Assembly: GCA_000004695.1 (NCBI GenBank)
Contig: CM000150.2
Location: 128,001-192,000, forward strand
Length of the DNA stretch: 64,000 bases
Direction of reading: 5' to 3'
From: Dictyostelium discoideum
Taxonomy: Eukaryota
Below the pieces are notes generated by a model. That model ran no database searches. It saw only the letters and a program-made list of their open reading frames with translations, and was not told where the DNA came from. A program made the position numbers and the translations under genes. Of this stretch, positions 33,798 to 63,667 are shown in pieces. Numbering within the stretch: position 1 is the first letter of the stretch; the number at the start of each line of letters is the position of its first letter.

Positions 33798-33836
<39 letters not shown>

Positions 33837-33892
33837 GAAATATAGTTTTCCCCTGCTTTACTTTCTCTTTTTCTCAGCCACATTAATTATGA

Positions 33893-34258: not shown

Positions 34259-34507
34259 TTATAAATAAGGTGCTTTTAAATGTAATTATTAATAAACTTT
34301 AAAATTCAATTTTTAAGGAGCTTTAAAATGTAATTATTAATATAATTTTTAATCATATTTTTAAGTAATTTTAAAGAGCATTATAAAGTTAATTTTAAAG
34401 GGCATTTTAAAGGTAATTTTAAAGGTAATTTTAAAGGTCATTTTAAAGGTAATTTTCAAGGTCATTTTAAAGTTAATTTTAAAGGTAAGTTTAAAGGTGA
34501 TTTTAAA
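34259..34507. repeat. C-family MITE part, interrupted by the Skipper insertion
   Basis: Other half at 63518-63667 ends with TIR cacagcgatgaaaattacacc(rc); TTAAA at both junctions. Confidence 0.5.
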
Positions 34508-34897
34508 TGTAAAAGTCACTCACACTAATCTTCAATCCATTGTCACATTTGTTCAATCTTAAATCAAACAGTCCAATCTTTAAAGTAATGTATTTTAATA
34601 TGAAGGATAGAAAGAGTGAAAGACTAATATCATAAAAGTAAACATACATAAAAGAGATAATTAAAAGTAAGGGCGTTATGAAACTAAACCGAAAATCAGA
34701 ATTTTTATTATTTTTTTTAAATTTTAATTTAATTTAATTTTTTTTAATTTAATTTTTTATTTTTTTGACTGAAAAAATAAAAAATTAAAAAATAAAAATA
34801 AAAATTAAATGAAATATTTTTACATGGAGATGCGCGAATTTGTTACGTTGTTGAGCTCATACTAACTTTAAATTAATTTAGTTTTGAGTCTCTAACA
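34508..34897 (-). repeat. Skipper 3' LTR (390 bp) followed by polypurine tract GAAGGAAGGGGAAGG at 34898-34912 (minus sense)
   Basis: Identical to 41115-41504; boundary defined by divergence from flank and by copy-3 LTR. Confidence 0.85.
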
Positions 34898-34940
34898 CCT
34901 TCCCCTTCCTTCTTTAGGCTAGCTATGGCTCAGAGGTGGA

Positions 34941-37900
34941 CTATAAACTCTTGGGTGTAACTTTTCTTCCTGATCTAGTTGTTTTAATTTGTAAACTAAG
35001 ATCAAGTTCATCATCCTCACTTGAAGTATTTTGATTTCTTGATTTTCTTTTCTTTGATTGGTTTCTTTGATTTGAGATGGAGTTTTGTTGTCTTGGAGTA
35101 ATTGGTTGCAATGTTTGAGAACTTTGAACTTCTTGGGAGAGTGGAGGTGACACAATTGGCTCAACGGCTTCTGTAGTTACATTCTCTCTTTCTCTTCTTG
35201 AGTTCAATTGTTTCTTCTGCACGTTATTCCAATACTCTCTGACTAACTCTTCACAGTCTGTATCGACTTCTTTGATCCATTCAGGTTCTGGGTAACCTTT
35301 GAACTTCACTAGGTACATCTTTTTGACTTTATCGTGATTGAGAATACTTTCAACTTCGTAACTTGCTTCGTCCATCTCCTCAGGTTCGGGCATCGATATC
35401 TCTTCTCTTAACCACTCACTGTCCTCGTATAGTTTTACGATTTGATCCTTGTTGAACACATTGTGTTTCTTTGGATAACCTACTAAATCGAGTGTTACAT
35501 TATTACCATGAACGGCAGTGATTATGAATGGTCCACAATTCTTGGATTCAAGTTTGTGAGAGATTAGATCTTTTGAAAGATTAGTTTGGAAGAATTTTCT
35601 TTTAACCATCACCTTTTCTCCGACTACGAAGATAACATCACCACGACCTCGGTTGTAATACTTTTGAGCATTGATTTGAGCATCTAGTATATTATCACGG
35701 ACAATCTTTTTGATGTTGCTCATTGGTATACGAGTCTTTGTTAATGAATTGAAATGATTAACGGGAGTTGGTGGATTGAATCCATATACGATTTGGAATG
35801 GTGACATCTTTGTAGACTTGCTCATTGATGAGTTCATTGCAAATTCAATAAGTGGAATGATATCTGACCAATTCTCCCCATACTCTGTTGAGGCTTTAGT
35901 TAATATTCTAATAATTTCTCTATTCATTCTTTCAGTTTGACCATCAGCTTGTGCTCTGTGTGCCACAGTCATCTTGAGTTTAGAATCCATCGTCTTTGCC
36001 CATCTCTCCCATATTTCTGAAAGGAATCTTGGATCTCTATCGGAGACGATTGTTCTTGGATAACCATGGAGTCTGAACACATGATTCAACAATAATTGAG
36101 CAGTATGTTGGGCATCTATTGTCTTATGACATGGAACTATATGAACCATTTTAGATAATCTACAAACAATGACACAAACTTGATCGACTTCAACTGTAAA
36201 TCCGTTTATTGCATACATTGTTTTTGGTAGCGATAAGAAATCGATTGATATATCTCTCCAAACTTCAAAGGGAATTTCTAAACTTTGGAGTATACCATTA
36301 TCTTTACGGTTAATGTTCAATTGACATGTTGCACAAGACTTTATGTACCTCTTGATAATAGAAAACATTTCTTTGAAATAGTAATCTTGTCTTATATTAT
36401 TGTATGTGATATCTAAAGCGTGATGACCACTATATTTGGTATCGTGATATTCTCTAATGACGGTATGAATAGTTTCTTTATCTATGATGATTAATTTCTT
36501 GAACCCATCTTCACTAAGGTAACAGATATCATTAATTTCTTCAATGCATAAATTTGGATTCTTTTTCATCTCTAATAGCCATTGAGAATTGATTTGTTCT
36601 TCCTTAATTTTATTTAAAAACGATTCATCCCATTGGAAATTATCATATTTACGAGATAAGAAATCAGCTATACCATTCTTTTTACCACTTATATGTCTTA
36701 ATTCATAATCAAATTCTTTAATATATTTCATATAATTATCTTGTCTCTTTGTGAACGGTTTATCGTTTGACTTATTGATAATATATGTAAGATTTTGGTG
36801 ATCAGTGTAGATTGAAACCTTTTTACCAATTAATAAATGTTGAAACTTCTTTAGAGAATCAATGATTGAAAGGAACTCTCTATCACCTATGCTGTACCTC
36901 TTTTGAGTATCAGTAAGTTTTCTACTATGAAACCAAATGACTTTGAATTTATTACCTTGAATTTGATATAATACACCTGATAATGCTTTATCACTAACAT
37001 CACAATACAAGTGAAAACTACCATTGTTTAGATTATTATTATCTGAATGGATTGGCATGTCTGTTGATGCTTTAACCTTTTCGATATCTATTGGTATGGA
37101 GTTATCTTGTTCAATTGGAATAGCGACAATATTTTCACCTTCAAACTCTTTCTTTAGATTATTGAATTCTTTGAGTGATTCATCAGAAAGTGTTTTCTTG
37201 TTTTTTCCTTTTGATTCTTTGGAAAGGTGATAGGTTTTTTCAGCGTAATTTTCAATGTGTCTCCTGAAGAATCCAAAAAGACCTAATGCAGCTTCAGCTT
37301 CTTTGGCGTTTCTTGGTTCAGGTAACTCAGAGATAGCTCTAACCTTTGCAGCTCTTGGAGATATACCATCTTTATGAATGTGGAAACCAAGGAAATCTAC
37401 TTCAGTCTTTAACATTTCACTCTTTTCTCTTGAAATGAATAATAGGTACTTTCTACAATATAGAAGCATTCTAATGATTTCAATGAAATGTACCATGTAG
37501 TCGAGTTTTGAATGAACCAAAAGATCATCAAAGTATTGTAATAAACTTTTGATTTTTCCAAATATTTCGACCATCAATCTGGCGAATGTGGATGGAGAGT
37601 TGACTAAACCTTGTGGCATTCTAGTATATTCAAATTTACCAATATGTGTAATGAAAGCGGTGTACTTTGCGTGTTCTGGATTAATTAACACTTGGAAATA
37701 ACCCATAATCATGTCAAACTTTGAGAAAAGCTTTGAATCTTTACATTGATTTAAAAGACTATCAACCGGAGTGAATGGATGATCGTCTCTAACAGTGACT
37801 TTATTTAGTTGACGATAGTCGTGGACTACACGCCATGAATCTCTCTTCTTTAATAACATGATTGGAGATGAGTAATTTGATTCTGATCTTTTGATAATAC

Positions 37901-39224
37901 CTAAATCTATAAATTTGAGAACCATTTCTTCGACATGTCTCTTATGATCATCTGTTGAATAATAGATTTGTTTCTTTGTTGGTTCAACATCTTGATCTTT
38001 CTTTAATATGATATTATGTATGATATTACCTCTTCTGGAATTGTTAATCTGATCTGGAATATCAGGAAGTTTATCTACTATAACATCTTCGAATGAATCA
38101 TTAATGAAATCACGTACTGCTTGTATCTCTTCTTCTTCTGGATTAGTTTTAACCAGTATATCACAAAGTTGTGATGGGATGCTTTCAACAAACTTTGTAA
38201 CTTGTTCTTTGATATCTTCATCATCATCTAGTAGATTATGTGACTGTGACTGATTATCATTGGATACGGTAACATGTTTTCTTGGAGCTTTTACATTACA
38301 ATGTAATTGATTCGACTGTTGATAATTAATTTTGTATGTACTGTTATTCAACTTGATTATTTTATCTTTTTGGTTAATGATAGAGTCCTTAAGGATATCA
38401 TTACCGAAAAGTACATCAATGATATCCAATTCTATAATAAAGAAGTTATGAATTTCATTGTTAACTTGTATATTGATTTGTTCAACAAACTCTTCTTTGA
38501 CGTCTAGTAGCGGGAAGTTAATCTTGGCTTTCGTTTTGTGAACGTGGTTCTTCATATCTTTTGAAATCAACCTCTTATTGATTAAACTAACATTACTTCC
38601 AGTATCGAGAATTAATTTGAATTGTTTTTCTTTGGAATGAGAGTTAATTATAATCTTGGGTTTATCCATGTTTTCTCTGTTTGGAACGATTAAACATTTT
38701 AGAGTCGGAATGAGAGCAGTATCACTTGTACCAGTACTATGTAATAATGAGATGATTGGTTTGTTTGTTTCTTTATCGAATTTAATTGTGTAAAGCAATT
38801 CATCTTCTTCATCATTAATTAATTCTTTACTAGAATTTAATATCTTTGGACGATTGAATATGTTAACAGTATAGTTTTTATCTTGAACATTTGTTAACTC
38901 TGTTGGAGTATTAAATTCAATCTTCTGTGGTTTATACTTCATCTCTGATTCAACAGCTTTTGGAATTGGAACGGTTGTATCAGGAACTAGTTTTATACCA
39001 TATGAGTCTTTGACGTATTCTTTAAGTTTGTTGATGTTTTTATGAACATCATGTTGCTGGCTTTGTTGATGTAACTGTTTAACAATGTTTTGATTATAAA
39101 AAGAGTTAAGAGTATAAAGTGAATCTTTGTTCACTGGGTAATCATTATCCTCAAGGTGATGATATTGTGAAATTTTATAATTTTTATTTAAAATCTTTGA
39201 CTTGGACTCATCACCTTCATCGAG
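34941..39224 (-). CDS. pol: Skipper Pol polyprotein: protease (DTGS ~38596), RT (YFDD ~37520), RNase H, integrase (HHCC 36320-36450, DDE), C-terminal chromodomain (~35240-35350); in frame with gag through a single UGA
   Basis: LILDTGSNVSLI, QYFDDLLVHS, HHALD...CATCQ, YEVESILNHDKVKKMYLVKFKGYPEPEWIKEV. Confidence 0.85.
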   Translation of the reverse strand, partial: LDEGDESKSKILNKNYKISQYHHLEDNDYPVNKDSLYTLNSFYNQNIVKQLHQQSQQHDVHKNINKLKEYVKDSYGIKLVPDTTVPIPKAVESEMKYKPQKIEFNTPTELTNVQDKNYTVNIFNRPKILNSSKELINDEEDELLYTIKFDKETNKPIISLLHSTGTSDTALIPTLKCLIVPNRENMDKPKIIINSHSKEKQFKLILDTGSNVSLINKRLISKDMKNHVHKTKAKINFPLLDVKEEFVEQINIQVNNEIHNFFIIELDIIDVLFGNDILKDSIINQKDKIIKLNNSTYKINYQQSNQLHCNVKAPRKHVTVSNDNQSQSHNLLDDDEDIKEQVTKFVESIPSQLCDILVKTNPEEEEIQAVRDFINDSFEDVIVDKLPDIPDQINNSRRGNIIHNIILKKDQDVEPTKKQIYYSTDDHKRHVEEMVLKFIDLGIIKRSESNYSSPIMLLKKRDSWRVVHDYRQLNKVTVRDDHPFTPVDSLLNQCKDSKLFSKFDMIMGYFQVLINPEHAKYTAFITHIGKFEYTRMPQGLVNSPSTFARLMVEIFGKIKSLLQYFDDLLVHSKLDYMVHFIEIIRMLLYCRKYLLFISREKSEMLKTEVDFLGFHIHKDGISPRAAKVRAISELPEPRNAKEAEAALGLFGFFRRHIENYAEKTYHLSKESKGKNKKTLSDESLKEFNNLKKEFEGENIVAIPIEQDNSIPIDIEKVKASTDMPIHSDNNNLNNGSFHLYCDVSDKALSGVLYQIQGNKFKVIWFHSRKLTDTQKRYSIGDREFLSIIDSLKKFQHLLIGKKVSIYTDHQNLTYIINKSNDKPFTKRQDNYMKYIKEFDYELRHISGKKNGIADFLSRKYDNFQWDESFLNKIKEEQINSQWLLEMKKNPNLCIEEINDICYLSEDGFKKLIIIDKETIHTVIREYHDTKYSGHHALDITYNNIRQDYYFKEMFSIIKRYIKSCATCQLNINRKDNGILQSLEIPFEVWRDISIDFLSLPKTMYAINGFTVEVDQVCVIVCRLSKMVHIVPCHKTIDAQHTAQLLLNHVFRLHGYPRTIVSDRDPRFLSEIWERWAKTMDSKLKMTVAHRAQADGQTERMNREIIRILTKASTEYGENWSDIIPLIEFAMNSSMSKSTKMSPFQIVYGFNPPTPVNHFNSLTKTRIPMSNIKKIVRDNILDAQINAQKYYNRGRGDVIFVVGEKVMVKRKFFQTNLSKDLISHKLESKNCGPFIITAVHGNNVTLDLVGYPKKHNVFNKDQIVKLYEDSEWLREEISMPEPEEMDEASYEVESILNHDKVKKMYLVKFKGYPEPEWIKEVDTDCEELVREYWNNVQKKQLNSRRERENVTTEAVEPIVSPPLSQEVQSSQTLQPITPRQQNSISNQRNQSKKRKSRNQNTSSEDDELDLSLQIKTTRSGRKVTPKSL

Positions 39225-40388
39225 TCATTGTTGCTTTTTGGCTGATGGACCTGGATTGGCTTTGGCATCGACCGGATCAATTCTACATGTAGATGTGGAG
39301 TGATTTGATTTACCACAATTGAGACAGTAGCCTTTGTTTTGACGGTAAACGATGAAACTGCTTCTTATCTTTTTGAGGTCTACCTTAGAGTCTTTTCTTA
39401 TTTCGGGTAATATTGCAGCTCTAATCTTATCAGCTTGAGCATCAAAGGAATTCCTGTTATGAGAGTTATGATTTGGAGTAGCATGATTCTTTTTTAATAG
39501 AAACTTCTCATCAGTATTCGATGCAGAATCGGAAGGTCTTCTTCTCGAGAACTTATCAGCATTGTTAAGAACCAACTCGGTGATGGCTTCACGACACTCG
39601 GTGATATCGGTTTGAGTGTTGAGTTTGATTGCAACATCAGTTTGTAACCAGTCTGGTACGACCATCTTTAACAAAGCAAGGATATTATTATCTAAAATTG
39701 ATCTTAGATACTCTAATTGAACTTCAGCAGTACCATGGATGAGATACACCGGATTAATTACATTGTGGTAACTCATAATGGCTTCGATGTTTTTTATAAC
39801 ATCTTGGGCTGAGTAGCAGTTACGATGGTTAATAGCTTCGACTACTTTAGTGTTGGCAGCTTCGTAGTCAGTTTTGAATGGAACCAAAGTCTTGGATCTA
39901 AAGTTACGGTGGATTAGCTTCTTTAATGTTTCACCTTCAATTTTATCGTTGTTCTTAACTGATTCATTGTGGGTAGGTTGAAGCAATTGAAATAATTCAT
40001 TTGATGCAGCACCATTGTCCATAATGGTCTTCAAGGTTGGTTCAACACCATTCTGGGAGCAGTGGATGGTAAAGAGATTCATGAAGATGACAGCAGTGGC
40101 AGCATTTTTTAAAGCGTCAATGGTTTTAGCTTCAATCGAATTGGTCTTTGATTTCTTTGGCACTTTCTCTCTGACTTCGACGTCGGATACATCAGTGCTT
40201 TCAGTTGAATAAATTTCATCATCAACTTCAGTGGGACGAAGAGTCTTTTTTGATTTTACTTGAACAGTAATAGCATCATCGGAGGCAGTTGTCACTTCAG
40301 CGGCACGTTTGGCGGTGGAAGACACTTTGGCTTTACGGATGGCTTTCTTTGAATGAGTAGTAGTTGATGACATGACTTTCACCAACAA
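39225..40388 (-). CDS. gag: Skipper Gag (387 aa) with CCHC zinc knuckle CLNCGKSNHSTSTC
   Basis: C-x2-C-x4-H-x4-C near C-terminus at ~39290-39335. Confidence 0.85.
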   Translation of the reverse strand: MLVKVMSSTTTHSKKAIRKAKVSSTAKRAAEVTTASDDAITVQVKSKKTLRPTEVDDEIYSTESTDVSDVEVREKVPKKSKTNSIEAKTIDALKNAATAVIFMNLFTIHCSQNGVEPTLKTIMDNGAASNELFQLLQPTHNESVKNNDKIEGETLKKLIHRNFRSKTLVPFKTDYEAANTKVVEAINHRNCYSAQDVIKNIEAIMSYHNVINPVYLIHGTAEVQLEYLRSILDNNILALLKMVVPDWLQTDVAIKLNTQTDITECREAITELVLNNADKFSRRRPSDSASNTDEKFLLKKNHATPNHNSHNRNSFDAQADKIRAAILPEIRKDSKVDLKKIRSSFIVYRQNKGYCLNCGKSNHSTSTCRIDPVDAKANPGPSAKKQQ

Positions 40389-40631
40389 TTATATATAAAA
40401 TTTATTAAATATAATTTAATTTTATAATTTAATTTTTTTATTTAATTTACATAATTTAATTATATAATTTAATTTAATTTATTTAATTTAATTTAATTTA
40501 ATTTTTAATTAAATAATTAAATATAAGTATTAATATATGTTAACTGTTATTCCACTAATATATTTTTATTGTGGTGTCTTTATATTATTTAATTGATAAT
40601 AAATATTATCTTAAATTATTTTAATTATAAC

Positions 40632-40818
40632 AATGCATCAATATAACTGTTATTCCACTAATAATTTATATTGTGGTGTCTTTATTTAACTGTTATTCCA
40701 CTAATAATTTATATTGTGGTGTCTTTATTTAACTGTTATTCCACTAATAATTTATATTGTGGTGTCTTTGTTTAACTGTTATTCCACTAATAATTTATAT
40801 TGTGGTGTCTTTGTATTT
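40632..40818. repeat. 43-bp tandem repeat x4 in Skipper 5' leader (AACTGTTATTCCACTAATAATTTATATTGTGGTGTCTTTATTT)
   Basis: Direct head-to-tail copies between LTR and gag ATG. Confidence 0.8.
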
Positions 40819-41114
40819 GAGCATTATTATTAAATTAATTGATACAATCTTGTTTTATATTACTTTATAAAAGATGCATGTTTACAATGTGAGTAGGAAG
40901 TGTCGTTGTACCGCCTAAGCAGTACAGCGTTAATCTTGCAAACAGAAGGGCCATTGTAATGCATTTTTATTTTGTTTTAAATACTACTGTTATTCCTCTA
41001 ATCTGAAGAGTCGACTTCTTCATCATGAGGTGTCATTGTATACGAAATATAAGGATTGTATCTAATTATTTGTTTTAATGTATTTGTTTTATGTTAAAAT
41101 TAGAAAAAAAAAAG

Positions 41115-41504
41115 TGTAAAAGTCACTCACACTAATCTTCAATCCATTGTCACATTTGTTCAATCTTTTATCAAACAGTCCAATCTTTAAAGTAATGTTT
41201 TTTAATATGAAGGATAGAAAGAGTGAAAGACTAATATCATAAAAGTAAACATACATAAAAGAGATAATTAAAAGTAAGGGCGTTATTCCAACTAAACCGA
41301 AAAATCAGAATTTTTATTATTTTTTTAAATTTTAATTTAATTTAATTTTTTTTAATTTAATTTTTTATTTTTTGACTGAAAAAATAAAAAATTAAAAAAT
41401 AAAAATAAAAATTAAATGAAATATTTTTACATGGAGATGCGCGAATTTGTTACGTTGTTGAGCTCATACTAACTTTAAATTAATTTAGTTTTGAGTCTCT
41501 AACA
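41115..41504 (-). repeat. Skipper LTR shared between copy 1 (as 5' LTR) and copy 2 (as 3' LTR)
   Basis: Single LTR separates two complete internal regions. Confidence 0.85.
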
Positions 41505-41547
41505 CCTTCCCCTTCCTTCTTTAGGCTAGCTATGGCTCAGAGGTGGA

Positions 41548-44500
41548 CTATAAACTCTTGGGTGTAACTTTTCTTCCTGATCTAGTTGTTTTAATTTGTA
41601 AACTAAGATCAAGTTCATCATCATCACTTGAAGTATTTTGATTTCTTGATTTTCTTTTCTTTGATTGGTTTCTTTGATTTGAGATGGAGTTTTGTTGTCT
41701 TGGAGTAATTGGTTGCAATGTTTGAGAACTTTGAACTTCTTGGGAGAGTGGAGGTGACACAATTGGCTCAACGGCTTCTGTAGTTACATTCTCTCTTTCT
41801 CTTCTTGAGTTCAATTGTTTCTTCTGCACGTTATTCCAATACTCTCTGACTAACTCTTCACAGTCTGTATCGACTTCTTTGATCCATTCAGGTTCTGGGT
41901 AACCTTTGAACTTCACTAGGTACATCTTTTTGACTTTATCGTGATTGAGAATACTTTCAACTTCGTAACTTGCTTCGTCCATCTCCTCAGGTTCCGGCAT
42001 CGATATCTCTTCTCTTAACCACTCACTGTCCTCGTATAGTTTTACGATTTGATCTTTGTTGAACACATTGTGTTTCTTTGGATAACCTACTAAATCGAGT
42101 GTTACATTATTACCATGAACGGCAGTGATTATGAATGGTCCACAATTCTTGGATTCAAGTTTGTGAGAGATTAGATCTTTTGAAAGATTAGTTTGGAAGA
42201 ATTTTCTTTTAACCATCACCTTTTCTCCGACTACGAAGATAACATCACCACGACCTCGGTTGTAATACTTTTGAGCATTGATTTGAGCATCTAGTATATT
42301 ATCACGGACAATCTTTTTGATGTTGCTCATTGGTATACGAGTCTTTGTTAATGAATTGAAATGATTAACGGGAGTTGGTGGATTGAATCCATAAACGATT
42401 TGGAATGGTGACATCTTTGTAGACTTGCTCATTGATGAGTTCATTGCAAATTCAATAAGTGGAATGATATCTGACCAATTCTCCCCATACTCTGTTGAGG
42501 CTTTAGTTAATATTCTAATAATTTCTCTATTCATTCTTTCAGTTTGACCATCAGCTTGTGCTCTGTGTGCCACAGTCATCTTGAGTTTAGAATCCATCGT
42601 CTTTGCCCATCTCTCCCATATTTCTGAAAGGAATCTTGGATCTCTATCGGAGACGATTGTTCTTGGATAACCATGGAGTCTGAACACATGATTCAACAAT
42701 AATTGAGCGGTATGTTGGGCATCTATTGTCTTATGACATGGAACTATATGAACCATTTTAGATAATCTACAAACAATGACACAAACTTGATCGACTTCAA
42801 CTGTAAATCCGTTTATTGCATACATTGTTTTTGGTAGCGATAAGAAATCGATTGATATATCTCTCCAAACTTCAAAGGGAATTTCTAAACTTTGGAGTAT
42901 ACCATTATCTTTACGGTTAATGTTCAATTGACATGTTGCACAAGACTTTATGTACCTCTTGATAATAGAAAACATTTCTTTGAAATAGTAATCTTGTCTT
43001 ATATTATTGTATGTGATATCTAAAGCGTGATGACCACTATATTTGGTATCGTGATATTCTCTAATGACGGTATGAATAGTTTCTTTATCTATGATGATTA
43101 ATTTCTTGAACCCATCTTCACTAAGGTAACAGATATCATTAATTTCTTCAATGCATAAATTTGGATTCTTTTTCATCTCTAATAGCCATTGAGAATTGAT
43201 TTGTTCTTCCTTAATTTTATTTAAAAACGATTCATCCCATTGGAAATTATCATATTTACGAGATAAAAAATCAGCTATACCATTCTTTTTACCACTTATA
43301 TGTCTTAATTCATAATCAAATTCTTTAATATATTTCATATAATTATCTTGTCTCTTTGTGAACGGTTTATCGTTTGACTTATTGATAATATATGTAAGAT
43401 TTTGGTGATCAGTGTAGATTGAAACCTTTTTACCAATTAATAAATGTTGAAACTTCTTTAGAGAATCAATGATTGAAAGGAACTCTCTATCACCTATGCT
43501 GTACCTCTTTTGAGTATCAGTAAGTTTTCTACTGTGAAACCAAATGACTTTGAATTTATTACCTTGAATTTGATATAATACACCTGATAATGCTTTATCA
43601 CTAACATCACAATACAAGTGAAAACTACCATTGTTTAGATTATTATTATCTGAATGGATTGGCATGTCTGTTGATGCTTTAACCTTTTCGATATCTATTG
43701 GTATGGAGTTATCTTGTTCAATTGGAATAGCGACAATATTTTCACCTTCAAACTCTTTCTTTAGATTATTGAATTCTTTGAGTGATTCATCAGAAAGTGT
43801 TTTCTTGTTTTTTCCTTTTGATTCTTTGGAAAGGTGATAGGTTTTTTCAGCGTAATTTTCAATGTGTCTCCTGAAGAATCCAAAAAGACCTAATGCAGCT
43901 TCAGCTTCTTTGGCGTTTCTTGGTTCAGGTAACTCAGAGATAGCTCTAACCTTTGCAGCTCTTGGAGATATACCATCTTTATGAATGTGGAAACCAAGGA
44001 AATCTACTTCAGTCTTTAACATTTCACTCTTTTCTCTTGAAATGAATAATAGGTACTTTCTACAATATAGAAGCATTCTAATTATTTCAATGAAATGTAC
44101 CATGTAGTCGAGTTTTGAATGAACCAAAAGATCATCAAAGTATTGTAATAAACTTTTGATTTTTCCAAATATTTCGACCATCAATCTGGCGAATGTGGAT
44201 GGAGAGTTGACTAAACCTTGTGGCATTCTAGTATATTCAAATTTACCAATATGTGTAATGAAAGCGGTGTACTTTGCGTGTTCTGGATTAATTAACACTT
44301 GGAAATAACCCATAATCATGTCAAACTTTGAGAAAAGCTTTGAATCTTTACATTGATTTAAAAGACTATCAACCGGAGTGAATGGATGATCGTCTCTAAC
44401 AGTGACTTTATTTAGTTGACGATAGTCGTGGACTACACACCATGAATCTCTCTTCTTTAATAACATGATTGGAGATGAGTAATTTGATTCTGATCTTTTG

Positions 44501-45831: not shown

Positions 45832-46493
45832 TCATTGTTGCTTTTTGGCTGATGGACCTGGATTGGCTTTGGCATCGACCGGATCAATTCTACATGTAGA
45901 TGTGGAGTGATTTGATTTACCACAATTGAGACAGTAGCCTTTGTTTTGACGGTAAACGATGAAACTGCTTCTTATCTTTTTGAGGTCTACCTTAGAGTCT
46001 TTTCTTATTTCGGGTAATATTGCAGCTCTAATCTTATCAGCTTGAGCATCAAAGGAATTCCTGTTATGAGAGTTATGATTTGGAGTAGCATGATTCTTTT
46101 TTAATAGAAACTTCTCATCAGTATTCGATGCAGAATCGGAAGGTCTTCTTCTCGAGAACTTATCAGCATTGTTAAGAACCAACTCGGTGATGGCTTCACG
46201 ACACTCGGTGATATCGGTTTGAGTGTTGAGTTTGATTGCAACATCAGTTTGTAACCAGTCTGGTACGACCATCTTTAACAAAGCAAGGATATTATTATCT
46301 AAAATTGATCTTAGATACTCTAATTGAACTTCAGCAGTACCATGGATGAGATACACCGGATTAATTACATTGTGGTAACTCATAATGGCTTCGATGTTTT
46401 TTATAACATCTTGGGCTGAGTAGCAGTTACGATGGTTAATAGCTTCGACTACTTTAGTGTTGGCAGCTTCGTAGTCAGTTTTGAATGGAACCA
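45832..46493 (-). CDS. gag: Skipper Gag, copy 2, 5' part lost in assembly gap
   Basis: Identical to copy-1 gag C-terminal 220 aa; runs into N-run. Confidence 0.7.
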
Positions 46494-46593
46494 NNNNNNN
46501 NNNNNNNNNNNNNNNNNNNNNNNNNNNNNNNNNNNNNNNNNNNNNNNNNNNNNNNNNNNNNNNNNNNNNNNNNNNNNNNNNNNNNNNNNNNNN
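46494..46593. other. 100-N scaffold gap
   Basis: Run of n. Confidence 1.
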
Positions 46594-50926: not shown

Positions 50927-51583
50927 TAATGTAAAAAAATAAAAAAAAATAATAAAAAAAATGAAACCATAAAACATAAATAAAATGATATGTTTTATTT
51001 TTTAATTTAATTTTGTATAAATATTTGTGAATACAATGAGAAATAATATACCGGGTTACACTGAATTATATAAATAATAACATAATCTTTCTGAAAAACT
51101 TATTAATTTTTTTTTTTTTTTTTTTTTATTTTTTTATTTTTTTTTTTTTTAGTAATTGTTGACTAAAACCTATAAATATTTTCATTTATGTAACTACTGT
51201 ATTCTAAACTTAACTATAATTATATATTTGATATGTGTTTATTAATAATTTACCATTATAAATTGTAAAATAATTTTTAATTTTTTTTTTTTTTACCTTT
51301 TTTTTTATCTTTAATTTTTTTTTATCTTTTTTTTTTAACCTTTTTTTTTTATCTTTTTTTAACCTTTTTTTTATCTTTTTTTTTTTTTTTCTAAAATATT
51401 ATTGCTACATTTGTTGTTAAAAAAAAATAGGAATTTTATTTTTTTTTTATATTTTTTTTCATCACACATTCACAAACATGCTTTATTTTTTAAAAAAAAA
51501 ATATTTAAATTAAAAAAACATGCTTTATTTTTTTTTACAAAAATAAATTTTTTTTTTTTTATTTTTTTTTTTAAACCTATAAA

Positions 51584-53899: not shown

Positions 53900-54883
53900 A
53901 TCCATACACAGCGAAGAAAAAACCACCTTAAAAGCAAATTTAATCTAAAAAAAAAACAAAAAAAGTATTATTTTAGATTTCTTCAACTTCATCAATAATA
54001 TCAATGCTTTCAAAACCAATCACCAGTTCTTTTAAAATAAATTGATACTACAATTAAATAATAGCTGGTAAGTTAATATAATTTTTTTTTAAAAAAAAAA
54101 AAAATTAAAAAAAAAAAAAAAATAAATAATAATAATAAAATAAAATAGATAGACTAATTTGAAAAATAATAATTATATTTTAGGTTACCTTTCTTATTAT
54201 ACCAACAACCACTTCTTTTCAATCAAATTGATACTTCACTTATATAATAACTGGTAAGTCAATATAATTTTTTTTTTTTAAAAAAAAAATAATAATATAA
54301 AATAAAGAGATTAATATAATTTAAACAATTATATTTTAGGTTGTTTCTTCTTTTATTAGAACCTGTAAAGTAAATGCTTTTGGTACAAATTATAATGGAA
54401 ATAAAGTTCTGCTTTTCAAATTAGTCAATTATAAATGTTGTATTACCATTAAATAAAAAAAATTTCTGATTTCAAATACTTTTACTTTTTAATTAATTCT
54501 TTTTTTTTTTTTTTTTTTTTTAAATTTATTTTAAATTATTATTATAAAATGTTATTTTTAATTTTTATTTTTAAGTATTCTTATTAAGTGAACTTTATAA
54601 TTACCCTTAATAATTACCCTTATTAATTATAATTAATAATTCCACTTAATAGTTATACTTAATAATTATACTTAATAATTTTAATTATTAATTATATTTT
54701 ATTATTATACTTAATAATTATGCTTAATAAATATACTTTTTAATTATACTTAATAAATATACTTAATAAATATACTTTTTAATTATACTTATTAATTATA
54801 CTTAATAAATATACTTAATAATTATACTTAATAATTATACTTAATAAATATACTTATTAAGTATACTTAATAATAGTACTATT

Positions 54884-56153
54884 TACGTTCCTACTTTAAA
54901 GATGCTTTTAAGTATTTTTTTTCGCCCCTGTGGAGATTAACACCCTCATTTAGGGGATGTCTTGACCAGAACACAGGTTATCCCCTTATTTTTTCTTTTA
55001 ATTCAATGGAGGAATGTCATGCCATGTAAACCTTTTGATTTTGGTAACAGGACAAAACGCACTGCAGCGGTCGATAAAGCCAAGCGAGTTGCTAATCCAA
55101 TTCGTCGTACTCAGTTACTGAAGAAGATTCGTTAATGACTGATCGGAAAGTCAGCATCGCTAGAATGGTAGATTGTCGTTGAGATGCAGGGCGTAAAGCC
55201 CAGCTATTGGCAAAGATGTAAGCGGCTTAAGAGCCCCTAATTAGTATCCGCGGTCACGGCCGCACATCCTAGCCTATGGGCTCACACCAATGCGTAATAT
55301 GGTAGCAAAAATCATGTCAGATGAAGACATCCCAGATCATGATACCCGTACATGGTATTGTCTCCAGTATCCAATAACCTCAATCTGCCATCAAACCAAA
55401 TTATAATATTTAAAAAAAAAAATTTGAATCTCAAAAATCATTTTCTAGATCTGAAAAAACCCACTTAAATTATTATTAAATTACTATTTTTTTTAATAAT
55501 TTAGTAAATAGATATTTTAAGTCATAAATTAAGCGATAAAATCTATTTTTTTGGTTAACCAGCATAGTCTAGGTGTTTATCTATTTAATATGTTTTTTGT
55601 GGATAATAAAGCATATTTCAATCACTAATGATATTTATTAAATTTATTAAATTTGTTTATTTTTTTTTTCCGTGATGGAAAATGGTAAGACCATTAGTTC
55701 GTTCTGCATTGCCCATTACATCACCACTTCTTACATGTCAGCGTCTGGTGAAGTTACGCTGGGTGATGCAGCCGATAAAGAGACACAGTTCGCTATTAAC
55801 TCGACTGGATCGATTAATATGTAAGCGCCACGTTTTGTTCTGAAGGGTATTCGGGATGAGAGAACACCTGTTTTTGAATGCTCATGAATTATCCAGCATA
55901 GTATGTGGAATTCTATAGACCCTATTACCAGAAATACGACCACGGAAGATCTTGGTTCGCAACGCGTTTGCTGAAGTGGTTCACACACAACTATCCAACA
56001 GCGGTGATTGATGTGGTTAAGTCCGTGGCCCTGGTTCTTGTTAAACATCGCGATTTGATTGGTAACCCATCATTCATTGACACAGAGTGGTTTTTGGATG
56101 GTGAGTGTTTGCGTCATCTTAATAACGCACTGGTCATGGAAAACGAACCGGTT
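54884..56153. other. GC-normal island B' (duplicate of 15720-16989)
   Basis: Offset +39164. Confidence 0.55.
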
Positions 56154-58469
56154 TATTTATATTATCATATATATATATATATATTATGAATAACATTTAT
56201 TTATTTGAATTTCCCAAATATTTAAGATAATTTTTTAGAATGTTCTAGAACATTCGAAGAATAAAAAAAATTTTCCAAAGAAAAGTAAAAATTTCGACCC
56301 GGCACAATGATGCGATAATTGTGCAAGGTCGAAAAACTGAAAAATTCGGAACCGACACTATGTACAAAGTTGTGAAGGGTCGAAAACTCTTATTTTTTTG
56401 AGTTTTGCGAAATTTTTAAGAAAATAAAAACGTATAAATAGTGGCACTAAAAACTAAAACAATTTGATTTATTTTATTTGGGAATTCCTCCTATATATAT
56501 TTAAGATACACACACACACAAATTTTATACAAATATTTATTTCTCTTTATTAATTTTTTATATTATTATTTTTCTCATATTATAATTTTAGATATCAACA
56601 ATAAAATATGTCTACCACTGTTAATAATAATGATGCCTCTAGTAGTAGTGCCTCTGCCTCTAATAGCGCTGAATCCTTTGATTTAAGAATAAAATCAATG
56701 GAGGATCAAATCAACAACCTTTCTTTAGCCTTTACAAGATTCATGAAAGAACCTATTTTCTCATCTAATTCCAATTCACGTAGCCAACCTTCTCATGATA
56801 ACTCTGACACCGAGAATGAACAAAGTGAAGATGAATCAAGTAACAATGTCGATGTTCCAACCGATTATCAATTATCCGATACCTTACTTGGTCAGTACAA
56901 ACATATGGTAAACAATCAAGGTTTACTCGTCGAAGGAATCAAGAATCTACCATCAATGGTCAAACAAGGTTATTACATGGTAAAACTCGATATCAAGAAA
57001 GCCTACCTCCACGTTTTAGTAGATCCGCAATACAGAGACTTATTCCGCTTCGTGTGGAAAGGTTCGCACTACCGTTGGAAAACAATGCCGTTGGGGTTAT
57101 CGACAGCTCATGGTATCTTTACAATGTTGTTAAGACCTGTACTTGGAATGTTGAGAGATATCAACGTATCCGTCATCGCTTACTTGGACGATCTATTAAT
57201 CGTCGGTTCAACAAAAGAAGAATGTTTATCCAACCTCAAAAAGACGATGGACTTACTTATCAAACTAGGTTTCAAGTTAAATCTAGAAAAGAGTGTTCTC
57301 GAACCAACTCAATCAATTACGTTTCTCGGATTACAAATCGATTCAAAATCAATGAAGCTTCTTGTTCCCAAAGAAAAGAAGAAAAGTGTCATCAAGGAAA
57401 TAAGAAACTTTTTAAAACTAGATTGTTGCTCCCCAAGAAAGCTTGCTGGTTTAAAAGGAAAGCTAATTGCACTGAAAGATGCAGTTATCCCATTCAGACT
57501 TTACACTCGTAGAACAAACAAGTTTCACTCTCAGTGTCTGACTCTAGCCAATGGAGATTGGGATCAATCATTCCCCATTCCTCAAGAGGTCAAGTCAGAG
57601 ATTTCACATTGGTTAACAGTTCTAAACCAATGGAATGGAAAAGAAATCAGTCTGTTTCCAAGTTACGACTATGTTCTTACAACCGATGCCTCGGAATCAG
57701 GTGCAGGTGCCACTCTCAAGAAAGGAAACAAGGTAATCAAAACTTGGTCATTCCAGTGGTCAACAACTCAATCAAACATGTCGTCAAATCGTCGAGAAAT
57801 GCTCGCGCTGCTAATGGCCTATCAAGCGCTATGTCAGAAACTGAACAACTGCAAGCTGAAGATTCAAACCGACAACACTACCACTCTCTCTTACATCAAT
57901 CGCCAGGGTGGTCAGATACAGGATCTCTCAGTTCTGTTCGAACAACTTTGGAAACAATGCCTCAAGAAGAAAGTGAACTTGATTGGAGAGCATATTCCAG
58001 GATTCTTCAATGTAAAAGCCGACCACCTCAGTCGTCTTTCAGAGATGAATCACAAATCATCGTCCAGAGTAATCAAGAGTTACAACTGGCAACTGAAGAA
58101 GGAAGTGTTCAATCGCATCCAACTTCAATTCGGTCAAATACAGATGGATCTGTTCGCATCTCACTTCAACCATCAAACGAACAACTACTCAACAATCAGA
58201 ATGAATGCACTCCACCTCGATTGGAGTCAATGGAAGCAATGTCTGGCCTTTCCACCACCCATTCTTTTGCCTTCTATCCTGGAGAAGATGAACTCATCCA
58301 GTTCGAAGAAGGTTTCTATAATACTGATCTTCCCAATCTGGAGATCAGCAACTTGGTATCCGATGATTCAAGCTCAAGTTCCTCGTCATCATCGTCACAT
58401 GTTTCCTCAAGTACTGGGAACATTCCAAGAAGTATTGACCAAACAATCAGTAGAGTCGATACCAATCCA
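56154..58469 (+). mobile_element. DIRS-1 copy 3' (same 1041-bp deletion), truncated by N-gap; ORF1-RT fusion 56608..58469
   Basis: Same junction ctcgtcgaaggaatcaag; differs from copy 3 at several sites including a C-to-G cluster 57090-57150. Confidence 0.85.
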
Positions 58470-58569
58470 NNNNNNNNNNNNNNNNNNNNNNNNNNNNNNN
58501 NNNNNNNNNNNNNNNNNNNNNNNNNNNNNNNNNNNNNNNNNNNNNNNNNNNNNNNNNNNNNNNNNNNNN
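58470..58569. other. 100-N scaffold gap
   Basis: Run of n. Confidence 1.
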
Positions 58570-61221
58570 TAATAGCCATTGAGAATTGATTTGTTCTTCC
58601 TTAATTTTATTTAAAAACGATTCATCCCATTGGAAATTATCATATTTACGAGATAAGAAATCAGCTATACCATTCTTTTTACCACTTATATGTCTTAATT
58701 CATAATCAAATTCTTTAATATATTTCATATAATTATCTTGTCTCTTTGTGAACGGTTTATCGTTTGACTTATTGATAATATATGTAAGATTTTGGTGATC
58801 AGTGTAGATTGAAACCTTTTTACCAATTAATAAATGTTGAAACTTCTTTAGAGAATCAATGATTGAAAGGAACTCTCTATCACCTATGCTGTACCTCTTT
58901 TGAGTATCAGTAAGTTTTCTACTATGAAACCAAATGACTTTGAATTTATTACCTTGAATTTGATATAATACACCTGATAATGCTTTATCACTAACATCAC
59001 AATACAAGTGAAAACTACCATTGTTTAGATTATTATTATCTGAATGGATTGGCATGTCTGTTGATGCTTTAACCTTTTCGATATCTATTGGTATGGAGTT
59101 ATCTTGTTCAATTGGAATAGCGACAATATTTTCACCTTCAAACTCTTTCTTTAGATTATTGAATTCTTTGAGTGATTCATCAGAAAGTGTTTTCTTGTTT
59201 TTTCCTTTTGATTCTTTGGAAAGGTGATAGGTTTTTTCAGCGTAATTTTCAATGTGTCTCCTGAAGAATCCAAAAAGACCTAATGCAGCTTCAGCTTCTT
59301 TGGCGTTTCTTGGTTCAGGTAACTCAGAGATAGCTCTAACCTTTGCAGCTCTTGGAGATATACCATCTTTATGAATGTGGAAACCAAGGAAATCTACTTC
59401 AGTCTTTAACATTTCACTCTTTTCTCTTGAAATGAATAATAGGTACTTTCTACAATATAGAAGCATTCTAATGATTTCAATGAAATGTACCATGTAGTCG
59501 AGTTTTGAATGAACCAAAAGATCATCAAAGTATTGTAATAAACTTTTGATTTTTCCAAATATTTCGACCATCAATCTGGCGAATGTGGATGGAGAGTTGA
59601 CTAAACCTTGTGGCATTCTAGTATATTCAAATTTACCAATATGTGTAATGAAAGCGGTGTACTTTGCGTGTTCTGGATTAATTAACACTTGGAAATAACC
59701 CATAATCATGTCAAACTTTGAGAAAAGCTTTGAATCTTTACATTGATTTAAAAGACTATCAACCGGAGTGAATGGATGATCGTCTCTAACAGTGACTTTA
59801 TTTAGTTGACGATAGTCGTGGACTACACGCCATGAATCTCTCTTCTTTAATAACATGATTGGAGATGAGTAATTTGATTCTGATCTTTTGATAATACCTA
59901 AATCTATAAATTTGAGAACCATTTCTTCGACATGTCTCTTATGATCATCTGTTGAATAATAGATTTGTTTCTTTGTTGGTTCAACATCTTGATCTTTCTT
60001 TAATATGATATTATGTATGATATTACCTCTTCTGGAATTGTTAATCTGATCTGGAATATCAGGAAGTTTATCTACTATAACATCTTCGAATGAATCATTA
60101 ATGAAATCACGTACTGCTTGTATCTCTTCTTCTTCTGGATTAGTTTTAACCAGTATATCACAAAGTTGTGATGGGATGCTTTCAACAAACTTTGTAACTT
60201 GTTCTTTGATATCTTCATCATCATCTAGTAGATTATGTGACTGTGACTGATTATCATTGGATACGGTAACATGTTTTCTTGGAGCTTTTACATTACAATG
60301 TAATTGATTCGACTGTTGATAATTAATTTTGTATGTACTGTTATTCAACTTGATTATTTTATCTTTTTGGTTAATGATAGAGTCCTTAAGGATATCATTA
60401 CCGAAAAGTACATCAATGATATCCAATTCTATAATAAAGAAGTTATGAATTTCATTGTTAACTTGTATATTGATTTGTTCAACAAACTCTTCTTTGACGT
60501 CTAGTAGCGGGAAGTTAATCTTGGCTTTCGTTTTGTGAACGTGGTTCTTCATATCTTTTGAAATCAACCTCTTATTGATTAAACTAACATTACTTCCAGT
60601 ATCGAGAATTAATTTGAATTGTTTTTCTTTGGAATGAGAGTTAATTATAATCTTGGGTTTATCCATGTTTTCTCTGTTTGGAACGATTAAACATTTGAGA
60701 GTCGGAATGAGAGCAGTATCACTTGTACCAGTACTATGTAATAATGAGATGATTGGTTTGTTTGTTTCTTTATCGAATTTAATTGTGTAAAGCAATTCAT
60801 CTTCTTCATCGTTAATTAATTCTTTACTAGAATTCAATATCTTTGGACGATTGAATATGTTTACAGTATAGTTTTTATCTTGAACATTTGTTAACTCTGT
60901 TGGAGTATTAAATTCAATCTTCTGTGGTTTATACTTCATCTCTGATTCAACAGCTTTTGGAATTGGAACGGTTGTATCAGGAACTAGTTTTATACCATAT
61001 GAGTCTTTGACGTATTCTTTAAGTTTGTTGATGTTTTTATGAACATCATGTTGCTGGCTTTGTTGATGTAACTGTTTAACAATGTTTTGATTATAAAAAG
61101 AGTTAAGAGTATAAAGTGAATCTTTGTTCACTGGGTAATCATTATCCTCAAGGTGATGATATTGTGAAATTTTATAATTTTTATTTAAAATCTTTGACTT
61201 GGACTCATCACCTTCATCGAG
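58570..61221 (-). CDS. pol: Skipper Pol, copy 3, C-terminal integrase/chromodomain part missing (gap)
   Basis: Identical to copy-1 Pol over PR-RT-RH. Confidence 0.75.
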
Positions 61222-62385
61222 TCATTGTTGCTTTTTGGCTGATGGACCTGGATTGGCTTTGGCATCGACCGGATCAATTCTACATGTAGATGTGGAGTGA
61301 TTTGATTTACCACAATTGAGACAGTAGCCTTTGCTCTGACGGTAAACGATGAAACTGCTTCTTATCTTTTTGAGGTCTACCTTAGAGTCTTTTCTTATTT
61401 CAGGTAATATTGCAGCTCTAATCTTATCAGCTTGTGCATCAAAGGAATTCCTGTTATGAGAGTTATGATTTGGAGTAGCATGATTCTTTTTTAATGGAAA
61501 CTTCTCATCATTATTCGATGCGGAATCGGAAGGTCTTCTTCTCGAGAACTTATCAGCATTGTTAAGAACCAACTCGGTGATGGCTTCACGACACTCGGTG
61601 ATATCGGTTTGAGTGTTGAGTTTGATTGCAACATCAGTTTGTAACCAGTCTGGTACGACCATCTTTAACAAAGCAAGGATATTATTATCTAAAATTGATC
61701 TTAGATACTCTAATTGAACTTCAGCAGTACCATGGATTAGATACACCGGATTAATTACATTGTGGTAACTCATAATGGCTTCGATGTTTTTTATAACATC
61801 TTGGGCTGAGTAGCAGTTACGATGGTTAATAGCTTCGACTACTTTAGTGTTGGCAGCTTCGTAGTCAGTTTTGAATGGAACCAAAGTCTTGGATCTAAAG
61901 TTACGGTGTATTAGCTTCTTCAATGTTTCACCTTCAATTTTATCGTTGTTCTTAACTGATTCATTGTGGGTAGGTTGAAGCAATTGAAATAATTCATTTG
62001 ATGCAGCACCATTGTCCATAATGGTCTTCAAGGTTGGTTCAACACCATTCTGGGAGCAGTGGATGGTAAAGAGATTCATGAAGATGACAGCAGTGGCAGC
62101 ATTTTTTAAAGCGTCAATGGTTTTAGCTTCAATGGAATTGGTCTTTGATTTCTTTGGCACTTTCTCTCTGACTTCGACGTCGGATACATCAGTGCTTTCA
62201 GTTGAATAAATTTCATCATCGACTTCAGTGGGACGAAGAGTCTTTTTTGATTTTACTTGAACAGTAATAGCATCATCGGAGGCGGTTGTCACTTCAGTGG
62301 CACGTTTGGCGGTGGAAGACACTTTGGCTTTACGGATGGCTTTCTTTGAAGGAGTAGTAGTTGATGACATGACTTTCACCAACAA
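61222..62385 (-). CDS. gag: Skipper Gag, copy 3
   Basis: 387 aa, CCHC knuckle conserved. Confidence 0.85.
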   Translation of the reverse strand: MLVKVMSSTTTPSKKAIRKAKVSSTAKRATEVTTASDDAITVQVKSKKTLRPTEVDDEIYSTESTDVSDVEVREKVPKKSKTNSIEAKTIDALKNAATAVIFMNLFTIHCSQNGVEPTLKTIMDNGAASNELFQLLQPTHNESVKNNDKIEGETLKKLIHRNFRSKTLVPFKTDYEAANTKVVEAINHRNCYSAQDVIKNIEAIMSYHNVINPVYLIHGTAEVQLEYLRSILDNNILALLKMVVPDWLQTDVAIKLNTQTDITECREAITELVLNNADKFSRRRPSDSASNNDEKFPLKKNHATPNHNSHNRNSFDAQADKIRAAILPEIRKDSKVDLKKIRSSFIVYRQSKGYCLNCGKSNHSTSTCRIDPVDAKANPGPSAKKQQ

Positions 62386-62642
62386 TTATATATAAAATTT
62401 ATTAAATATAATTTAATTTTATAATTTAATTTTATAATTTAAATTATATAATTTAATTATATAATTTAATTTAATTTATTTAATTTAATTTAATTTAATT
62501 TTTAATTGAATAATTAAATATAAGTATTAATATATGTTAACTGTTATTCCACTAATATATTTTTTTTGTGGTGTCTTTATATTATTTAATTGATAATAAA
62601 TATTATCTTAAATTATTTTAATTATAACAATGGCATCAATAT

Positions 62643-62900
62643 AACTGTTATTCCACTAATAATTTATATTGTGGTGTCTTTATTTAACTGTTATTCCACT
62701 AATAATTTATATTGTGGTGTCTTTGTTTAACTGTTATTCCACTAATAATTTATATTGTGGTGTCTTTGTTTAACTGTTATTCCACTAATAATTTATATTG
62801 TGGTGTCTTTGTTTAACTGTTATTCCACTAATAATTTATATTGTGGTGTCTTTGTTTAACTGTTATTCCACTAATAATTTATATTGTGGTGTCTTTGTAT
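62643..62900. repeat. 43-bp Skipper leader tandem repeat x6
   Basis: Two more units than copies 1/2. Confidence 0.8.
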
Positions 62901-63189
62901 TTGAGCATTATTATTAAATTAATTGATACAATCTTGTTTTATATTACTTTATAAAAGATGCATGTTTACAATGTGAGTAGGAAGTGTCGTTGTACCGCCT
63001 AAGCAGTACAGCGTTAATCTTGCAAACAGAAGGGCCATTGTAATGCATTTTTATTTTGTTTTAAATACTACTGTTATTCCTCTAATCTGAAGAGTCGACT
63101 TCTTCATCATGAGGTGTCATTGTATACGAAATATAAGGATTGTATCTAATTATTTGTTTTAATGTATTTGTTTTATGTTAAAATTAGAA

Positions 63190-63517
63190 AAAAAAAGTGT
63201 AAAAGTCACTCACACTAATCTTCAATCCATTGTCACATTTGTTCAATCTTAAATCAAACAGTCCAATATAAAAGAGATAATTAAAAGTAAGGGCGTTATG
63301 AAACTAANCCGAAAATCAGAATTTTTATTATTTTTTTTAAATTTTAATTTAATTTAATTTTTTTTAATTTAATTTTTTATTTTTTTGACTGAAAAAATAA
63401 AAAATTAAAAAATAAAAATAAAAATTAAATGAAATATTTTTACATGGAGATGCGCGAATTTGTTACGTTGTTGAGCTCATACTAACTTTAAATTAATTTA
63501 GTTTTGAGTCTCTAACA
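63190..63517 (-). repeat. Skipper 5' LTR of copy 3 with ~70-bp internal deletion and one N (63308)
   Basis: Alignment to 34508-34897: segment ...ctttaaagtaatgtattttaatatgaaggatagaaagagtgaaagactaatatcataaaagtaaacatac missing. Confidence 0.8.
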
Positions 63518-63667
63518 TTAAAGGTGGTTTTAAAGGTGATTTTAAAGGTGATTTTAAAGGTCATTTAAAAAATTGCTTTTAAATTAATTTTTAAGTGACT
63601 TTTTTATAGGACTTTAAATCCACTTTTAATTTAATTTAAAGTTGCTTTAAAGGTGTAATTTTCATCG
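63518..63667. repeat. C-family MITE TIR half (other side of the Skipper insertion site)
   Basis: Ends ...gtgtaattttcatcgctgtg; begins with TTAAA matching 34503-34507. Confidence 0.5.

Follow-up and report, generated by a model that had tools for sequence, protein, structure and literature searches.

A Dd-Skipper-1 array in the chromosome-1 centromere of Dictyostelium discoideum AX4 is probably a single insertion inflated by misassembly

The stretch analyzed here, which we call the window, comprises 64,000 nucleotides of Dictyostelium discoideum AX4 DNA (assembly GCA_000004695.1, contig CM000150.2, positions 128,001 to 192,000 of the forward strand; coordinates given without a further label are those of the window). 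Between 34503 and 63522 it contains what appears in the assembly as a tandem array of the retrotransposon Skipper, in which three bodies lie head to tail and share long terminal repeats (LTRs). The original prediction had left it open whether this array was amplified by unequal crossing-over or inflated during assembly. The window is AT-rich (31% GC), and no tRNA genes were found in it. The array is surrounded by DIRS-1 copies with a tyrosine recombinase and by other repeats, a setting consistent with the centromere of chromosome 1 in the AX4 reference. The N content is confined to two gaps of 100 N each (46494-46593 and 58470-58569) and a single N at 63308.

Judged by its sequence, the element is Dd-Skipper-1, a Ty3/gypsy chromovirus, which is to say an already known element in an expected place. 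Dd-Skipper-1 of Dictyostelium discoideum was reportedly the subject of a study by Leng et al. in 1998. Body 1 measures 6997 bp from LTR to LTR. Its gag frame of 387 codons is separated by a single stop codon from a frame of 1427 codons in the same phase. The latter shows the Pfam domains RVT_1, RT_RNaseH, Integrase_H2C2 and rve, while gag has a zinc knuckle of the type CX2CX4HX4C (CLNCGKSNHSTSTC). The protease signal is weak (Peptidase_A3B with E=0.005, RVP with E=0.075), and the Pfam Chromo match spans positions 1-52 of the 53 profile positions with E=1.4e-4 and 22.1 bits, which is below the gathering score of 25.1 bits. On the minus strand the 5' LTR is followed by a polypyrimidine tract in place of a tRNA/TGG primer-binding site (CTTTTACA up to the junction, CTTTTTTTTTTCTAA after it), and the 3' LTR is preceded by a polypurine tract (AAGAAGGAAGGGGAAGG up to the junction, TGTTAGAG after it). 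The published consensus of Dd-Skipper-1 has 6998 bp and LTRs of 390 bp (Spaller et al. 2016, PMC5006619 Table 1), and a polypyrimidine tract substituting for the primer-binding site is a described feature of this element (PMC5006619).

The proteins point to the same identity. The pol and gag proteins of body 1 match DDB_G0267356 and DDB_G0267358 exactly, and the gag protein of body 3 is an exact match to DDB_G0267368; all three are annotated on what is presumably AX4 chromosome 1. The window element and Dd-Skipper-1 hence agree in size and LTRs, in the layout of gag, stop codon, reverse transcriptase (RT), RNase H and integrase, with a putative protease and a putative chromodomain in the second frame, in the polypyrimidine tract, in proteins that equal annotated AX4 genes, and in the centromeric setting among DIRS-1 and DNA transposons.

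The repeat layout was obtained by comparing the window with itself. The segment 34505-39886 recurs at 41111-46493 with 99.6% identity, and 36573-40814 recurs at 58570-62812 with 99.4% identity. LTR1 (34508-34897) and LTR2 (41115-41504) are 390 bp long each and have TG...CA ends (TGTAAAAG...TCTAACA), and the order LTR-body-LTR-body is unbroken from the first LTR to the N gap at 46494, so that the LTR positions and the directly tandem arrangement of bodies 1 and 2 proposed in the original prediction are borne out. The 3' part of the LTR is found again at 63268-63517. This third LTR (63198-63517) has only 320 bp owing to an internal deletion of 70 bp, which had previously gone unmentioned. Since the polypurine tract lies directly to the right of LTR1 and LTR2 on the plus strand, the element is on the minus strand and 63198-63517 is its 5' LTR; this orientation agrees with the placement of a third body whose 5' LTR ends at 63517. 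TTAAA is present, as had been predicted, at both outermost junctions (34503-34507 and 63518-63522).

A three-way alignment of bodies 1, 2 and 3 separates two sequence types, which were named gamma and beta. For comparison, further loci were retrieved by an exact-sequence look-up of the two gag proteins. Among them are L005, the orthologous locus in an independent assembly, and L008, a solitary Skipper of the beta type; L006 is a further beta-type copy. L002 and L003, which came from a search for the orthologous locus with the 839-aa ORF and a Skipper fragment, are paralogous centromere segments of other chromosomes. The features of the locus, including the copies of the target-site duplication (TSD), any open reading frame (ORF) and the 5' untranslated regions (UTRs), are as follows.

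30373-34507, plus strand: main part of the host element, a transposon-like repeat of ~4.3 kb with an 839-aa ORF at 30505-33024 (from the ORF, the paralogues L002 and L003, and Tandem Repeats Finder, TRF).
34503-34507, unstranded: left TSD copy TTAAA (junction identical in L005).
34508-34897, minus strand: 3' LTR of the real (gamma) Skipper-1, 390 bp (no mismatches to the LTR at 63198-63517 outside the 70-bp deletion).
34898-38006, minus strand: gamma Skipper body with the C-terminal two thirds of pol (RT, RNase H, integrase and a putative chromodomain); alleles as in body 3 and L005, not body 2.
38007-38699, minus strand: switch zone from gamma to beta, without gamma/beta differences (longest variant-free interval).
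38700-41114, minus strand: beta Skipper with N-terminal pol, gag and a 5' UTR with 3.9 copies of a 43-bp repeat; alleles as in body 2, L008 and L006, not body 3 or L005.
41115-41504, minus strand: beta-type LTR, the "shared" one (set apart from the outer LTRs by 5 mismatches and 4 indels; equal to both L008 LTRs).
41505-46493, minus strand: body 2, a beta Skipper cut by the gap (pol equal to DDB_G0270954 and the L008 pol).
46494-46593, unstranded: scaffold gap of 100 N.
46594-58469, unstranded: gap-bounded contig duplicating 7435-19305, with an AT-rich core that bears repeats and a DIRS-1 fragment on either side of it (99.77% over 11,874 bp).
58470-58569, unstranded: scaffold gap of 100 N.
58570-63197, minus strand: body 3, gamma Skipper with N-terminal pol, gag and a 5' UTR with 6.0 copies of the 43-bp repeat, probably the genuine 5' part (gag equal to DDB_G0267368).
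63198-63517, minus strand: gamma 5' LTR with the 70-bp deletion (deletion also in L005).
63518-63522, unstranded: right TSD copy TTAAA (junction identical in L005).
63518-63672, plus strand: right terminal ~155 bp of the host element (similarity to L002 and L003 stops at 63672-63674; 100% identical to L005).
63673-64000, minus strand: inverted partial copy of the host-element family, outside the host element (reverse complement of 33927-34267, 94%).

The element that received the insertion deserves closer description. Both flanks consist of 12-bp tandem repeats (ATTTTAAAGGTA; TRF) in which TTAAA recurs every 12 bp, and for this reason a match of the two TSD copies is by itself weak evidence. 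Excision of one TTAAA copy, however, preserves the 12-bp phase. In addition, paralogues run uninterrupted across the site in L002 (13276-14437 and 14488-14644), in L003 (17614-18615 and 18636-18790) and in the window itself (27473-27725), and both junctions are identical to the window in the orthologous locus L005. L002 and L003 serve in this way as empty-site paralogues; L004, found in the same ortholog search, is likewise a paralogous centromere segment of another chromosome. The solitary beta Skipper L008 is bordered by a 5-bp duplication of different sequence, TTGTT, which argues that a 5-bp TSD is the product of the Skipper integrase. A chance match of the two flank halves through the 12-bp repeat was considered and rejected because of the preserved phase, the paralogues and the orthologue. 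These sequence comparisons support the view, already put forward in the original prediction, that one Skipper insertion with a TTAAA duplication split one pre-existing element.

The flanks are indeed the halves of one element, but its earlier assignment to a C family of miniature inverted-repeat transposable elements (MITEs) could not be established. The terminal module of ~390 bp is contiguous with an ORF-bearing element of ~4.3 kb (30373-34507 and 63518-63672) in the window as well as in L002 and L003, and there is one detached copy of the module, at 27473-27725. The last ~240 bp left of the insertion (34266-34507), formerly regarded as the left MITE half, are 12-bp repeats. The 839-aa ORF has no Pfam match; relatives of it with 42-96% identity were found in Dictyostelium assemblies only, some of them labelled 'C2H2-type domain-containing'. 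The ~4.3-kb host repeat is probably a DDT-type DNA transposon.

Long inverted repeats of 94-97% identity were also observed in this part of the window (25486-26819 versus 30496-31849, 33927-34267 versus 63673-64000, and 28341-28878 versus 29459-29995). They are formed by copies of the same transposon families in opposite orientation; arrangements of this kind are capable of forming hairpins and could act as sources of centromeric small RNAs.

The three bodies of the array itself are not copies of one sequence. At all 6 variable sites within 36660-38006 body 1 agrees with body 3 and not with body 2, whereas at all 12 variable sites within 38700-39741 it agrees with body 2 and not with body 3, and not a single site in the three-way alignment shows three alleles. 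Body 2 is beta and body 3 gamma, with 18 sites in 3.3 kb distinguishing them; body 1, whose left part is gamma and whose right part is beta, is a chimera of the two types. Over the element as a whole, gamma and beta are separated by 58 differences (46 single-nucleotide polymorphisms (SNPs) and 12 indels), which corresponds to 0.8%. The LTRs follow the same division, since the two outer LTRs have no mismatches to each other when the 70-bp deletion and the N are set aside, and 5 substitutions and 4 indels, 9 differences in total, set the middle LTR apart from them. The switch in body 1 falls into the longest variant-free interval of the element, 694 bp from the last gamma site at 38006 to the first beta site at 38700. 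Moreover, the first 2127 bp of body 3 (58570-60696) are 100% identical to 36573-38699. The gamma part of body 1, 34898-38006, can be taken as a genuine part of the insertion at the centromeric site.

An independent view of this site is offered by GCA_054883475.1, a de novo assembly from Nanopore and Illumina data (Holland et al. 2025, PMC12745789), for which a coverage of 79x was reported and, by the CRAQ check, a high structural quality as for all genomes of that study (PMC12745789). It shares many proteins with AX4 at full identity, and we infer that it represents the lab strain AX2-214. The orthologous locus L005 occupies positions 1-17115 of contig CM142508.1. Its right flank is identical to the window at 483 of 483 positions, and so are the 593 bp of the left flank that adjoin the element. 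Between these flanks there is exactly one Skipper, of 7013 bp and with two LTR starts. When a gamma element is reconstructed from the window by joining 34308-38699 to 60697-63717, all of its 7413 positions align to L005 without gaps, and the sole mismatch is the N of the window. At each of the 58 diagnostic positions L005 carries the gamma state, the 70-bp LTR deletion and the six 43-bp repeats among them, and its pol protein is equal to DDB_G0267356. The gamma element is common to AX2 and is accordingly an old insertion.

The gamma copy departs from the known Dd-Skipper-1 in nothing essential; its peculiarities are the deletion in its 5' LTR and two extra 43-bp repeats in its 5' UTR. The 43-bp repeat is present in 3.9 copies in beta (40644-40812) and in 6.0 copies in gamma (62642-62898), and the 70 bp that are absent from the gamma 5' LTR correspond to 34578-34647 in the other LTR. 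As the deletion is also found in the independent assembly, it is real and older than the AX2/AX4 split; it may influence transcription of the gamma copy.

The beta sequence in the window has an exact counterpart elsewhere. A beta element reconstructed from 41115-46493 and 39887-41504 is identical to L008 at 6997 of 6997 positions, and both LTRs of L008 are identical to the middle LTR of the window. L008 (contig JBTAPE010000039.1) is located in a gene-bearing arm, inside a TRE element, with glycosyl hydrolase and prenyltransferase genes as neighbours. That AX4 carries the same copy on chromosome 1 follows from its annotated proteins, the AX4 context outside the window being deduced from the order of protein accessions. 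DDB_G0270954 (XP_646285, AX4 chromosome 1) equals the pol sequence of both body 2 and L008. Its partner DDB_G0270952 is a full-length beta gag and equals the gag protein of the beta part of body 1; unlike it, the gag of body 2 in the window is truncated by the gap. It is followed along the chromosome by DDB_G0270638 (XP_646286), a TRE-ORF1-like protein without a counterpart in the window beyond its last 20 residues; these come from translation of a beta-type LTR (100% identical to LTR2 and 95% to LTR1). Chromosome 1 accordingly carries one Skipper of each type, the gamma copy at the centromere and the beta copy in an arm, and all beta sequence in the window appears to be accounted for by the arm copy.

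Some further observations were made on the retrieved copies. The gene model of DDB_G0270638 reads through a transposon junction into the Skipper LTR (L008 15477-17091). L006 is a beta-type element that differs from the beta reconstruction by 2 mismatches and an 8-bp indel and has another element inserted in one LTR; its pol protein differs by one residue from DDB_G0281535 on AX4 chromosome 3. In L007 (8855-21149, GCA_054883475.1) a Skipper is broken, at the equivalent of window position 37704/37705, by an insertion of ~5.5 kb which encodes a protein identical to AX4 DDB_G0267250. The identical or near-identical beta copies outside this centromere (L006, L007 and L008), solitary ones in chromosome arms among them, suggest a recently active Skipper-1 lineage. 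L001 (5920-19743 in GCA_054859385.1, a wild isolate, presumably CR116C) was considered as a natural tandem and rejected, as it consists of a Skipper nested within a Skipper at element position ~3011-3016, with copies that are only 87-95% identical to the AX4 element.

The remaining part of the array is the block between the two gaps. Its segment 46599-58469 copies 7435-19305 of the same window with 99.77% identity over 11,874 bp. Comparing 46594-58469 with 7433-19305, 31 columns differ, 2 of them at the extreme left contig edge (7433-7434) and the rest in either 7880-8288 or 17929-18649. Both of these patches lie within the DIRS-1 fragments at the contig ends, and the central 9.6 kb (8289-17928), with 20-30% GC and rich in short tandem repeats, are 100% identical between the copies. 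The restriction of the differences to the high-copy DIRS-1 ends argues that one locus was assembled or placed twice with different read recruitment. The block is probably a redundant contig placement and not a diverging segmental duplication. Within its AT-rich core, a diverged internal array of tandem or overlapping repeats with 78-86% self-similarity was observed at 15354-15719 (copy at 54518-54883).

Taken together, the two haplotypes, the exact matches to L005 and L008 and the redundant contig favour the second of the two sources originally envisaged for the three bodies, inflation in assembly. We consider it very likely, with a probability of roughly 85%, that the 29-kb array represents a single 7-kb Skipper-1 insertion in the AX4 chromosome-1 centromere that was inflated by misassembly. 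A gamma Skipper, in minus-strand orientation, entered the ~4.3-kb transposon-like element at the end made of 12-bp repeats and thereby duplicated TTAAA. The order of events that we infer for the original assembly would be the following. The assembly walk from the left flank would have proceeded on gamma reads and then slipped to beta reads in the 694-bp stretch in which both are identical. Having reached the beta LTR, it would have re-entered the beta body because the two beta LTRs are identical, giving rise to the "shared" LTR and a second body, which would have come to a halt at the contig end at 46493. The contig duplicating 7435-19305 would then have been scaffolded between two gaps, and the true continuation of gamma would have remained a separate contig from 58570 onwards, appearing as body 3.

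What has been published on the assembly is in line with this scenario. Glockner and Heidel (2009, PMC2665215) describe a manual reconstruction of the chromosome-1 centromere that drew on shotgun reads from chromosome-enriched libraries, and repeats of >5 kb were especially difficult as only short-insert clones were available (PMC2665215). For the centromeres of chromosomes 2 and 3, treated with the same technique, there were gaps without read-pair support, and contigs were ordered by overlaps to transposon consensus sequences (PMC2665215); the authors concede that other sequence might be present in the gaps or that the order of contigs might be different (PMC2665215). A 7-kb Skipper with a 0.8%-divergent sibling on the same chromosome is a case prone to precisely this problem with repeats of >5 kb. 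The situation resembles Sanger-era repeat-induced misassembly in the manually built D. discoideum centromeres in that the element exceeds the ~5-kb clone limit, but the present locus is not mentioned by Glockner and Heidel (PMC2665215), and the specific error is proposed from the present analysis.

Several points weigh against this conclusion. The join of body 1, LTR2 and body 2 lies inside a gap-free contig, and the original assemblers presumably had some evidence for it. A crossover would, a priori, also favour the longest variant-free interval, so that the position of the switch is modest evidence. In L005 the contig begins only 1.27 kb to the left of the Skipper, and its left flank shows, farther from the element, a poly-T length change, an 8-bp indel and 2 SNPs relative to the window. 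Furthermore, the decisive comparison is with the assembly of a sister lab strain and not with AX4 reads or read depth, and the AX2 lineage parted from AX4 decades ago. AX4 is moreover known to carry at least one private large duplication (PMC12745789).

These points lead to the first alternative, a real rearrangement specific to AX4 after the AX2/AX4 split, in which beta DNA, supplied as cDNA, as a 1-LTR circle or by the arm copy itself, recombined ectopically with gamma to yield an LTR-sharing multimer together with a duplicated 11.9-kb block. The gap-free join of body 1, LTR2 and body 2 is in line with such an event, homologous integration would yield a gamma/beta recombinant, private AX4 duplications are known (PMC12745789), and rearrangements of centromeres were reported by Glockner and Heidel (PMC2665215). 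Yet at least 3 or 4 bodies, or several events, would be needed. Two simple routes were considered and rejected: integration of one beta circle predicts a body 2 with a beta left half and a gamma right half, and integration of a beta dimer circle predicts a body 3 that is beta in 36573-38006, and neither pattern is seen. In addition, the inserted block has a gap on either side and shares 9.6 kb with upstream DNA at 100% identity, the beta sequence still matches the arm copy at 100%, without any divergence since the supposed event, and the simplest merge of the two contig ends gives exactly the AX2 structure. We regard this rearrangement as unlikely; if true, the AX4 array would have been built within ~50 years of axenic culture and would be a directly dated case of recombination-driven centromere expansion in Dictyostelium.

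It is also conceivable, if very unlikely, that only the Skipper part is an artefact and that the 11.9-kb block is a genuine recent segmental duplication residing elsewhere in the centromere and placed here by default. Centromeric DIRS clusters do rearrange (PMC2665215), and the two copies are not byte-identical, with 29 differing columns in the DIRS-1 ends. Alternative read recruitment, however, accounts for patches that both lie within high-copy DIRS-1 and are flanked by 100% identity, and a genuine duplication has to explain why 9.6 kb of indel-prone AT-rich sequence are devoid of differences and why the block stops on either side at a contig end that lies within DIRS-1.

Hardly credible, too, is the opposite view that the array is real and ancestral and was collapsed in the Nanopore assembly of the sister strain. 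Near-identical tandem units can be collapsed by long-read assemblers, and the end of the comparison contig is close to the element. Nevertheless, a collapsed array is expected to give a beta/gamma consensus, whereas L005 is purely gamma at the diagnostic positions and equals the gamma reconstruction; both unique junctions are located on one contig, 7013 bp apart; the coverage and the structural quality reported for this assembly speak against a collapse (PMC12745789); and beta is separately and fully assembled in the arm.

Yeast Ty1 and plant genomes provide examples of LTR-sharing tandem multimers, which arise by recombination either unequally between LTRs or with cDNA, and the assembled layout with three LTRs, head-to-tail bodies and one TSD pair is the same, but the window differs from them in that its middle LTR and its bodies have another origin than the flanking element, in its two gaps and foreign 11.9-kb block, and in the single unit that the independent assembly has at this locus. 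Amplification of one inserted element by unequal crossing-over between its LTRs, the other source proposed in the original prediction, would yield as its classic product LTR-body-LTR-body with one TSD pair and is in keeping with the identical outer LTRs, but it is as good as ruled out by the haplotype pattern, because the middle LTR should be a recombinant of two identical LTRs and yet shows 9 differences, because the bodies should match and yet 18 sites in 3.3 kb distinguish body 2 from body 3 and 58 events separate beta from gamma, and because AX2 holds one element of 7013 bp at the site in a long-read assembly. The beta-specific alleles cannot be sequencing errors either, which is excluded by their exact match to L008.

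If the array is, as we conclude, very probably a single inflated insertion, ~22 kb of the AX4 chromosome-1 centromere (38700-60696 in the window) would be spurious or misplaced, which deserves a curation note for the reference, and the annotated gag gene DDB_G0267358 would probably be part of a chimeric element. The biology of the locus is otherwise ordinary, a known retrotransposon in a known centromeric transposon cluster. The duplicated sequence can nevertheless distort the counts of 'intact' Skipper-1 copies in AX4, estimates of centromere length, and the mapping of small RNAs and of chromatin immunoprecipitation (ChIP) data over Skipper and DIRS-1.

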